From a virus (taxonomy: Duplodnaviria > Heunggongvirae > Uroviricota > Caudoviricetes): DNA of 14,375 nucleotides. Positions within the stretch are counted from its first letter, which is position 1, and each line of letters opens with the position of its first letter. Shown here one piece after another: positions 1,793-2,623 of the stretch. The stretch is from IMG/VR virus record IMGVR_UViG_2690316131_000006; one strand, 5' to 3'. The translations under genes and the position numbers were made by a program. The notes under the pieces are model-generated. The model saw only the letters and a list, made by a program, of their open reading frames with translations, ran no database searches and was not told the origin of the DNA.

Positions 1793-1821
1793 AAGGTAAC
1801 AAGAGTTACCTTTCGAGTCAA
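1793..1821 (-). promoter_or_regulatory. PL-like leftward early promoter (TTGACT-17 nt-TACCTT on minus strand) overlapping an operator palindrome
   Basis: Minus strand reads TTGACTcgaaaGGTAACtcttGTTACCTT; the GTAAC-N4-GTTAC palindrome (1796..1809) sits in the spacer and overlaps the -10. Confidence 0.4.
1796..1809. promoter_or_regulatory. Operator candidate OL: GTAACaagaGTTAC
   Basis: Third copy of the 5-4-5 palindrome also found twice in the repressor/cro intergenic region. Confidence 0.45.
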
Positions 1822-1851
1822 TACAATGTTGCAAAAGGTACATTTGAGGGC

Positions 1852-1878
1852 ATAAAAAACCCGCAATGAATGCGGGTT
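1852..1878 (-). terminator. Intrinsic terminator after the repressor gene
   Basis: Minus strand: AACCCGCA-ttcat-TGCGGGTT hairpin followed by TTTTTTAT, immediately 3' of the repressor stop at 1884. Confidence 0.6.
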
Positions 1879-1883
1879 CTGAC

Positions 1884-2558
1884 TCAGTCTAAGTATTGAT
1901 GTATTTGTGAAACTTTACCTTTAATGGTGTAACCACCATTCAGTTCGATGGGTTTGTAAAGCGGATTCAGTGACAACAGATAGATGTTTGGTCCGTCAAT
2001 CGCAACTTTTTTTAGTGTTACGTTTGGCGTTCCTTCCAATTGGATTAAGATTATTTTTCCCACCAGTTCTCTAATGTTACTTGAGCATGGTGTGATCAGC
2101 ACGGTAGATCCGTCGGGGATGGTTGGGAGGCCGTTAGAGTTTGTCATCGCATCTCCCTCAACATGCAATAAAAAAGAGTTTTCAGCGGTTTTTGTCATGA
2201 CATCAACCCAGTTCTTAATACCAGGAATCTTGGTTACTGGACAACTCATATCCCAATAACCAGCCTGTTCCCACGTTAAAACGGGCAACCGGGCGATGTT
2301 GTCACTAATGTAAGGGTACTGATTCAGACGCAGATCATCGGTTTTATCGTGACCGTCCTTTCCATAAAGAATCCATTCAGGAGATTTGGAAAGCAATTTT
2401 GACAGTAGATACAAATTCTCACCGTCAGGTTTTGAAGAGCCATTTTCCCATTTTGTTACGGATACACGAGATATGCCGATTGCTTTCGCAACCTGCTGTT
2501 GGGTTAATCCAACGTCTTTTCGACGATTCCGAATACGTTCGCTGATAGTGTTTTTCAT
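1884..2558 (-). CDS. Prophage repressor, CI/C2-like: N-terminal XRE-type helix-turn-helix plus C-terminal S24 (LexA-like) peptidase domain; catalytic Ser replaced by Ala
   Basis: N-terminus MKNTISERIRNRRK...GLTQQQVAKAIGISRVSVTKWENG resembles P22 C2 as I recall it; C-terminal ...HVEGDAMT...TLKKVAIDG...LNPLYKP aligns with λ CI ...EVEGNSMT...FTFKKLIRD...LNPQYP. Candidate Ala-Gly cleavage site at QAGYW. Start chosen at ATG 2558 (224 aa) so that both operator palindromes fall in the intergenic region; the ORF track's longer start at 2657 overlaps the cro-like gene. Confidence 0.85.
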   Translation of the reverse strand: MKNTISERIRNRRKDVGLTQQQVAKAIGISRVSVTKWENGSSKPDGENLYLLSKLLSKSPEWILYGKDGHDKTDDLRLNQYPYISDNIARLPVLTWEQAGYWDMSCPVTKIPGIKNWVDVMTKTAENSFLLHVEGDAMTNSNGLPTIPDGSTVLITPCSSNIRELVGKIILIQLEGTPNVTLKKVAIDGPNIYLLSLNPLYKPIELNGGYTIKGKVSQIHQYLD

Positions 2559-2572
2559 GTAACCAATGTTAC
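2559..2572. promoter_or_regulatory. Operator candidate: GTAACcaatGTTAC, directly abutting the repressor start codon
   Basis: Perfect 5-4-5 palindrome; position analogous to an autoregulatory OR3/PRM-type site. Confidence 0.45.
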
Positions 2573-2593
2573 CACCAAGTGATGTTGCTTTGG

Positions 2594-2623
2594 TTGACAT
2601 TGTTATGTAACTATTGTTACCCT
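2594..2623 (+). promoter_or_regulatory. PR-like rightward early promoter (TTGACA-18 nt-TACCCT) with an operator in the spacer/-10
   Basis: Consensus -35 TTGACA at 2594..2599; GTAACtattGTTAC at 2607..2620 overlaps the -10; AGGAG Shine-Dalgarno at 2639..2643 before the cro-like ATG at 2650. Confidence 0.45.
2607..2620. promoter_or_regulatory. Operator candidate: GTAACtattGTTAC
   Basis: Perfect 5-4-5 palindrome overlapping the -10 of the predicted PR, same arrangement as at PL. Confidence 0.45.

Follow-up and report, generated by a model that had tools for sequence, protein, structure and literature searches.

Three palindromes in a lambdoid Escherichia coli prophage as predicted strong operators of a P22/lambda-type CI-Cro switch

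The 14,375-base pair (bp) stretch of viral DNA analyzed here (the window; IMG/VR record IMGVR_UViG_2690316131_000006) derives from a lambdoid, Qin-like, DicF/DicB-carrying Escherichia coli prophage and contains three copies of the palindrome GTAACNNNNGTTAC (GTAAC-N4-GTTAC), which are very probably the strong operators of a P22/lambda-type CI-Cro switch. The proposal of an earlier note on this DNA, namely that these copies are the binding sites of the phage repressor, is supported by the gene context, by site positions kept in 17 loci, by the conservation of the half-sites, and by their co-variation with recognition helices. We read the palindromes as operators because (i) they occur far beyond chance, (ii) their position and geometry are kept in distant relatives, and (iii) the recognition helices of CI and of Cro change along with them. 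The three copies are the following, where OL and OR denote the left and right operator regions.

1796-1809, GTAACAAGAGTTAC: predicted operator OL1, which fills the spacer of the predicted early promoter PL and overlaps the first 3 nucleotides (nt) of its −10 element; exact match, weight matrix rank 3.
2559-2572, GTAACCAATGTTAC: predicted OR3-equivalent operator, which abuts the ATG of the repressor gene cI and contains the predicted −10 element of PRM; exact match.
2607-2620, GTAACTATTGTTAC: predicted OR1-equivalent operator, which lies between the −35 and −10 elements of the predicted early promoter PR and overlaps the −10 element; exact match, weight matrix rank 1, 22.6 bits.

An exact pattern search of both strands placed the palindrome at 1796, 2559 and 2607 and nowhere else in the window, in agreement with the count given in the earlier note, which had named a motif common genome-wide at random positions as the outcome that would speak against operators. 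Dinucleotide-preserving shuffles of the window averaged 0.01 matches, and in 200 of them three matches were never reached. The motif is short, with ten specified bases, and nothing else favors the idea that the three matches arose by chance; given the shuffles and the conservation of the same positions in diverged loci, the probability of such an origin is negligible. Allowing up to two mismatches adds only three further scattered sites, against a total of 3.96 expected, and we attribute these to chance. A one-mismatch site at 5442 (GTAAATTTCGTTAC), located within a DUF1627 gene, was likewise rejected as a chance match, since it scores 10 bits compared to 18-22 bits for the real sites and the counts at up to two mismatches agree with expectation. 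A weight matrix trained on 42 strong sites, all of them from other loci, ranked the three palindromes first to third among the 14,362 window positions scored (18.1-22.6 bits), with the next best position at 10.1 bits. A de novo repeat search over positions 1740-2680 recovered the same three-copy family (D2) as the main repeat of the control region.

The palindromes lie between two divergent regulatory genes, 91 bp apart, and again just past the terminator of the leftward one:

1884-2558, minus strand: cI-type repressor gene, 224 amino acids; Pfam HTH_3 in the N-terminal part (3.5e-17) and Peptidase_S24 in the C-terminal part (9.7e-17).
2650-2865, plus strand: cro-equivalent gene of the P22_Cro family, 71 amino acids; Pfam P22_Cro (7.5e-15).
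1853-1881, minus strand: intrinsic terminator of cI, a GC-rich hairpin followed by a U-run; −16.7 kcal/mol, z = −4.27, with 0 of 200 shuffles folding as well.

The repressor matches full-length lambda CI (3bdn) at 3.4e-14, the DNA-binding domain of P22 C2 at 1.3e-12, and also the DNA-binding domain of the 434 repressor. The terminator was missed by a strict scan, and folding then confirmed the hairpin.

We compared 17 loci with repressor identities from 100% down to ~41%. They comprise E. coli copies at 83-100% DNA identity; contigs with repressors 89, 88, 70, 66 and 52% identical (E. coli, Salmonella, metagenome, Hamiltonella); a ~44%-identical clade from E. coli, Kosakonia and Edwardsiella; and the sequenced phages ST101-KPC2phi6.3, AH07, ZF40, mEp390 and YeP1. 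All 17 share one OR frame, in which the cI ATG is followed by O3 (14 bp), 11 bp, O2 (14 bp), 9 bp and O1 (14 bp), and then by TACnTT. On the OL side, 12 loci display the order terminator, distal site, TTGAC, 6 nt, OL1 and TAC(C/A)TT. In the 14 non-redundant loci that have GTAAC-type sites, the columns within the half-sites of O1 and O3, the outer sites, carry 1.85-1.89 bits, compared to 0.43 for the O3-O2 spacer and 0.69 for the bases downstream. OR1 is identical, its center included, in seven loci (the window, O111, O178, P0002, P0003, Salmonella and L007), and OL1 of the O178 copy (83% identical) differs only in the 4-bp center, where AAGA is replaced by AGAA while both half-sites are intact. 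The relatives carry two or three sites per side; in the window, OR has two perfect sites, and OL has one together with a fair OL2 candidate.

In mEp390 and YeP1, the same frame is occupied by a different dyad, GTAGG-N4-CCTAC, at O1, O2, O3 and OL. The recognition helix of CI reads RVSVTKW in loci with GTAAC and RVTVTGW in these two phages, and that of Cro reads SH(V/P/A)AV(V/C)(R/K)W with GTAAC and SHASVSGW with GTAGG. A basic-to-glycine change in two proteins of unrelated length, accompanied by a change of all operators, would be hard to explain unless both proteins read the dyads. Because the Cro helix co-varies with the half-site as well, comparison by itself does not tell CI and Cro apart, and this co-variation speaks for an alternative in which the main reader of the dyads is not CI but Cro only, the YdaT-like protein or a host factor. 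We consider this alternative improbable: the CI helix co-varies in like manner, the known YdaT site is a different motif located elsewhere (2855-2872), and one site abutting the cI start with two more inside the early promoters is the layout of the operators shared by CI and Cro in P22 and phage 21. Less probable still is that the palindromes function as RNA hairpins with a 5-bp stem and a 4-nt loop, or are by-products of promoter sequence. Palindromy does survive the change from GTAAC to GTAGG, as a hairpin would also need, but a 5-bp stem is marginal and the sequence changes follow the helix-turn-helix (HTH) recognition helices of two proteins. Furthermore, OR1 and OL1 are absent from the PR and PL transcripts because they lie between the −35 and −10 elements, upstream of the predicted starts.

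The reading of the palindromes as operators is further tied to their placement within the early promoters, whose elements were read from the sequence as follows.

2594-2599, plus strand: predicted PR −35 element, TTGACA.
2618-2623, plus strand: predicted PR −10 element, TACCCT, with an 18-nt spacer from TTGACA.
1816-1821, minus strand: predicted PL −35 element, TTGACT.
1793-1798, minus strand: predicted PL −10 element, TACCTT, with a 17-nt spacer from TTGACT.

All of the hexamers assigned to PL and PR in the earlier note are thus present, with a half-site running into the −10 element. At both predicted promoters the dyad sits in the spacer and enters the −10 element, an arrangement that is kept in the relatives. 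GTTGACA is invariant at the PR −35 position in the nine loci of the window's clade, and TACnTT with an invariant final T is found at the PR −10 position in 15 loci. At the left side, nearly all loci have TTGAC 6 nt upstream of OL1 (L007 has TTGAT), and TAC(C/A)TT directly follows OL1 in every locus possessing one.

The third palindrome adjoins the repressor gene, and its predicted promoter element is the following.

2566-2571, minus strand: predicted PRM −10 element, TAACAT, inside OR3.

A site abuts the cI ATG with a gap of 0-1 nt in 17 of 17 loci, the corresponding gap in phage 21 being 2 nt. OR3 leaves no Shine-Dalgarno sequence before cI and holds, on the cI strand, the motif TAnnnT, which by inspection is conserved in all these loci; the −35 region of PRM is poor. 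The earlier note had attached the label PRM to this palindrome. The site itself stands, while the promoter is predicted there from the abutment on the ATG, the missing Shine-Dalgarno sequence and the conserved TAnnnT. An alternative −10 element in the O3-O2 spacer is good in mEp390 (TAAAAT) and YeP1 (TAAGAT) and is not conserved in the other loci, and the TAnnnT within O3 is therefore preferred as the likely −10 element of PRM.

This placement differs from the public annotation of the gene. In RefSeq, the Prokaryotic Genome Annotation Pipeline (PGAP) begins a repressor of 238 amino acids at an ATG at 2600, inside the PR −35 element, which places the 2559-2572 palindrome within the gene. In an alignment of 12 homologues, however, the Met at 2558 is invariant, and the 14 extra residues occur only in the closer relatives and are absent from the more distant ones. 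The extension is conserved only over the PR −35 element (MST = TTGACAT) and the palindrome (N-I-G-Y) and varies at every other position. This conservation pattern speaks against the start at 2600, which would also put the PR −35 element inside the gene. The cI gene probably starts at 2558, and PGAP has probably made the gene 14 codons too long in hundreds of genomes. With a start at 2558, the palindrome abuts the ATG without a Shine-Dalgarno sequence, an arrangement expected of leaderless mRNAs such as that of lambda cI. The records of AH07 and ZF40 contain similarly over-extended repressor starts.

Two weaker sites complete the predicted operator set:

1828-1841: candidate OL2 (weak), GTTGCAAAAGGTAC, which reads GTACCTTTTGCAAC in the PL direction; distal half-site good, proximal half-site poor; weight matrix rank 7 of 14,362.
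2584-2597: position-homologous OR2, GTTGCTTTGGTTGA; degenerate, with the right half forming the start of the PR −35 element.

The three sites of the earlier note hold as the strong sites but not as the complete set, which probably comprises five, with OL2 a fair candidate and OR2 included by positional homology only. OL2 is plausible as an operator: the relatives carry a site upstream of the PL −35 element, which is perfect or nearly so in two of them (L007 and AH07), although the OL2-OL1 spacing varies between 29 and 35 bp. OR2 occupies the 14-11-14-9-14 frame of the clear OR2 found in the Klebsiella phage ST101-KPC2phi6.3, AH07, ZF40 and mEp390, and in mEp390 its left half changes along with the half-site type.

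Several observations weigh against the reading as a P22/lambda-type CI-Cro switch. At −7.3 bits, the OR2 candidate ranks 99th of 14,362, so that its own sequence gives it no support, and a three-site cooperative OR may not operate in the window. If PRM starts at the ATG, OR2 is centered near −32.5 and not at lambda's −42, and lambda-style activation of PRM therefore cannot be assumed. A strict σ70 consensus scan of the window called neither PR nor PL, because the −10 hexamer of each matches TATAAT at only three of six positions; the matching positions (T, A and the final T) are those kept in all relatives. Finally, searches of the open-access literature did not turn up the exact site strings.

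The degeneracy of OR2 also underlies the most serious alternative, which we rate as a substantial possibility, though somewhat short of even: in the window's clade only OR1 and OR3 would be functional, OR2 having decayed to the −35 hexamer of PR, with neither OR1-OR2 cooperativity nor OR2-dependent activation of PRM. In addition to the low score of the site, the left half of OR2 within the clade is GTTGC, GTCAC, GTTAC, GTACC or GTGAA, and its right half is invariably GTTGA, part of TTGACA. On the other hand, the 14-11-14-9-14 frame is exact even though the sequences of the 11- and 9-bp spacers are free to vary, and the left half of OR2 in the relatives is a good half-site that turns into GTAGG along with O1 and O3.

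Combining the strong operators at OR1, OR3 and OL1 with the two weak sites, we propose the following model. Binding itself, the order in which the sites are filled, their cooperativity and the point where PRM starts are inferred in it from position, conservation and homology. A dimer of the HTH and S24 repressor would bind each 14-bp dyad, with one recognition helix (SRVSVTKWE) for every GTAAC half-site. At OR1 and OL1, CI would exclude RNA polymerase from PR and PL, because the dyad takes up the promoter spacer together with the first part of the −10 element. When not repressed, PR would drive cro, ydaT and the replication genes, and PL would drive the operon running from a ydfA-like gene to DicF/dicB. 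Cro (2650-2865) would read the same dyads as CI. OR3, which carries the likely −10 element of a PRM whose leaderless mRNA would start at the cI ATG, would be occupied by Cro early, or by CI in excess, and cI would be shut off. The weak sites OL2 and OR2 would be filled cooperatively, if at all.

The closest architectural parallel is the immC region of P22 and phage 21, which, like the window, contains divergent genes for an HTH and S24 repressor and a P22_Cro-family protein, operator cores of the 5-N4-5 form, and OL sites located after the repressor terminator. The annotated operators of phage 21 (CAT-AG, TTAAGACATCTTAA, 11 bp, TTAAGATTCCTTTG, 9 bp, TTAAGTGTTCTTTA) display an identical 14-11-14-9-14 geometry, and the outermost OR site adjoins the repressor ATG there as well. 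The phage 21 core, however, is TTAAG-N4-CTTAA, in contrast to the GTAAC half-site of the window, and the repressor is only 36% identical to that of the window. With respect to the operators, PR is displaced by ~14 bp: phage 21 has its −35 element before OR2 and its −10 element between OR2 and OR1, whereas in the window the right half of O2 is shared with the −35 element and the end of O1 with the −10 element. The window also differs in encoding a YdaT-type protein instead of a C1/CII-type activator, in showing no N/nut system, and in the loss of the catalytic Ser from its repressor. Neither the TTAAG core nor the closely similar repressor of the P22/phage 21 immunity type is present, and only the geometry is shared. 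The same geometry with another half-site makes the window a P22-type switch with a different half-site.

Lambda shares with the window the dyad operators common to PR, PRM and PL and the absence of a Shine-Dalgarno sequence before cI. The outer-site span of OR, 48 bp in the window, is close to that of lambda, which is ~47 bp. Lambda sites, however, are 17 bp long, compared to 14 bp in the window, and lambda OR3 begins 10 bp from the ATG, whereas that of the window abuts it. The window further differs from lambda in that OR2 and OL2 are very weak, no OL3 is seen, and Ser149 is replaced by Ala.

A third comparison is offered by CP-933P of E. coli O157:H7, a lambdoid cryptic prophage with a PaaR2/YdaS/YdaT switch, a leaderless repressor gene, and promoters of the PRM, PR and PL type (PMC8630535, PMC9986795). 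Like the window, it has a YdaT-type CII equivalent with a site of the TTGATT-N6-AATCAA type at the junction of the cro-equivalent and ydaT genes. Its operators, however, are 18-bp repeats with the consensus GTTTAGTAA, unlike the 14-bp dyads of the window; its repressor, PaaR2, is not of the HTH and S24 type and is linked to a toxin-antitoxin pair; and its Cro equivalent, YdaS, is described as having an HTH_Xre motif, whereas the Cro of the window belongs to the P22_Cro family.

Among sequenced phages, the operator type of the window is also carried by Klebsiella phage ST101-KPC2phi6.3, Pantoea phage AH07 and Pectobacterium phage ZF40, in which GTAAC/GTACC-N4-GTTAC sites occupy the OR and OL frames seen in the window. 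The string GTAACCAATGTTAC often recurs unchanged as their OR3, and their CI recognition helix equals that of the window or differs little from it. No published operator analysis of these phages was found, although no completed search was aimed at one. They differ from the window in that the repressors are 41-44% identical overall and retain the catalytic Ser, OR2 is clear (GTAAC-N4-GTTTG), and the CII equivalent is of another kind, belonging to the Phage_CP76 family in related bacterial loci.

Of 5426 complete E. coli genomes, 702 carry the 881-bp control module of the window. Within the phage collection, no encoded repressor exceeds 43% identity, and a megablast search of that collection matched only the flanks and not the immunity module. 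A contig scan with a single repressor protein gave, among the matches listed, only two irrelevant Firmicutes HTH proteins. The immunity type is uncharacterized and has no representative among sequenced phages. While the kind of system is textbook, its binding specificity and operator map appear to be new. The predicted map, consisting of five sites, three promoters and a corrected cI start, would apply to an immunity type found in about one eighth of complete E. coli genomes, ST131 and O111 strains included. It also indicates that the P22-type frame (5-N4-5 dyads, 14-11-14-9-14) has been reused with at least three different half-sites, and the K/R-to-G change that tracks the change of specificity in both CI and Cro provides a small natural data set for HTH-DNA recognition.

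The repressor itself has an unusual catalytic site. Its sequence GDAM replaces the G(D/E)SM of the relatives, and the Ala, encoded by GCG at 2148-2150 on the minus strand, aligns with Ser149 of lambda CI. The Lys (TLKKV) and the Ala-Gly cleavage site (EQAGYW) are retained, so the Ser-Lys dyad of RecA-cleavable LexA/CI repressors is incomplete only at the position of Ser. The S119A variant of LexA and the S149A variant of lambda CI are non-cleavable. With Ala at the position of the Ser nucleophile, the repressor is predicted to be insensitive to RecA and not to self-cleave on SOS induction. The Ala codon context was found in 682 of the 702 E. coli genomes carrying the module, with the use of a 35-nt query centered on the codon, for which no seed is possible if the critical base (window position 2150) differs. 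Ala is encoded by GCG in the branch of the window, O111 and P0002 and by GCA in the Salmonella relative, whereas the intervening branch of O178 and P0003 has Ser (TCA), and two events are thus required.

We judge it nearly an even question whether the dominant form of the module, carried by ~12.6% of complete E. coli genomes, encodes a CI that is unable to self-cleave and a switch that is uncoupled from the SOS response. If it does, either the prophage is domesticated, with the PL operon and its DicF/DicB cell-division inhibitors permanently off, or induction is RecA-independent and proceeds, for example, via an anti-repressor. A repressor lacking the Ser would also predict a prophage without the usual response to SOS-inducing antibiotics. 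A search of the literature on serine-less prophage repressors found nothing relevant.

Outside of the operator region, the immediate neighborhood contains the following elements.

2862-3287, plus strand: ydaT-like gene, the functional equivalent of CII; Pfam YdaT_toxin (2.8e-10).
2855-2872: candidate YdaT (CII-equivalent) operator, ATGATT-N6-AATCAA, at the junction of the cro stop and the ydaT start.
1456-1692, minus strand: DUF1391 gene, on the other side of the repressor gene.

The repeat at 2855-2872 has one mismatch to the CP-933P sequence TTGATT-N6-AATCAA and occupies the same place in five related loci (L001, L002 and L015-L017). In CP-933P, YdaT was footprinted on TTGATT-N6-AATCAA at the end of the cro-equivalent gene (PMC9986795). 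The window repeat is likely the site of the CII equivalent and marks a predicted PRE-like promoter region.

The untranslated segment at 1697-1790, between PL and the first leftward open reading frame, reads roughly CGCCTCGGGCTGGCTACTTAACCCCTGACCACTGCCGGGTAACTCGAAG on the plus strand and hardly differs in the O178 copy, which is 83% identical. It is partly common to L007, AH07, YeP1 and ZF40 (...ACGCCTCGGGC(T)GGCTACTT...) and is much better conserved than its surroundings. It could be a leader RNA element, for example one serving antitermination.

Downstream of the ydaT-like gene, the plus strand carries an O-like replication gene with iterons. This initiator gene, which spans 3310-4272 in the O111 copy, is interrupted in the window by an amber codon at 3844-3846 (CAG to TAG), the sole difference from O111 over 1 kb, and this copy of the prophage probably cannot replicate. 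Within the gene, positions 3655-3725 contain repeated units of the TTGACCC(G/C)TCAA type, and related GATCCGTCAG repeats follow further along; these repeats resemble the iterons of an origin such as the lambda ori.

Four Rfam matches reach the gathering threshold:

323-374, minus strand: DicF small RNA, on the strand read by PL.
7164-7338, plus strand: sok antitoxin RNA of a hok/sok-type module.
13542-13734, plus strand: STnc100.
13736-13797, minus strand: AgvB, an anti-GcvB small RNA.

The O111:H11 copy lies in a prophage that adjoins rspB and contains an integrase, an excisionase, dicB, a Q antiterminator and lysis genes. Late in the early-right region of the window, a DNA methylase gene (N6_N4_Mtase) occupies 10766-11791. 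The comparable position of the O111 copy (L001 19504-21514) holds a cytosine methyltransferase and an NgoMIV-type restriction enzyme, which indicates mosaic cargo between otherwise similar prophages.

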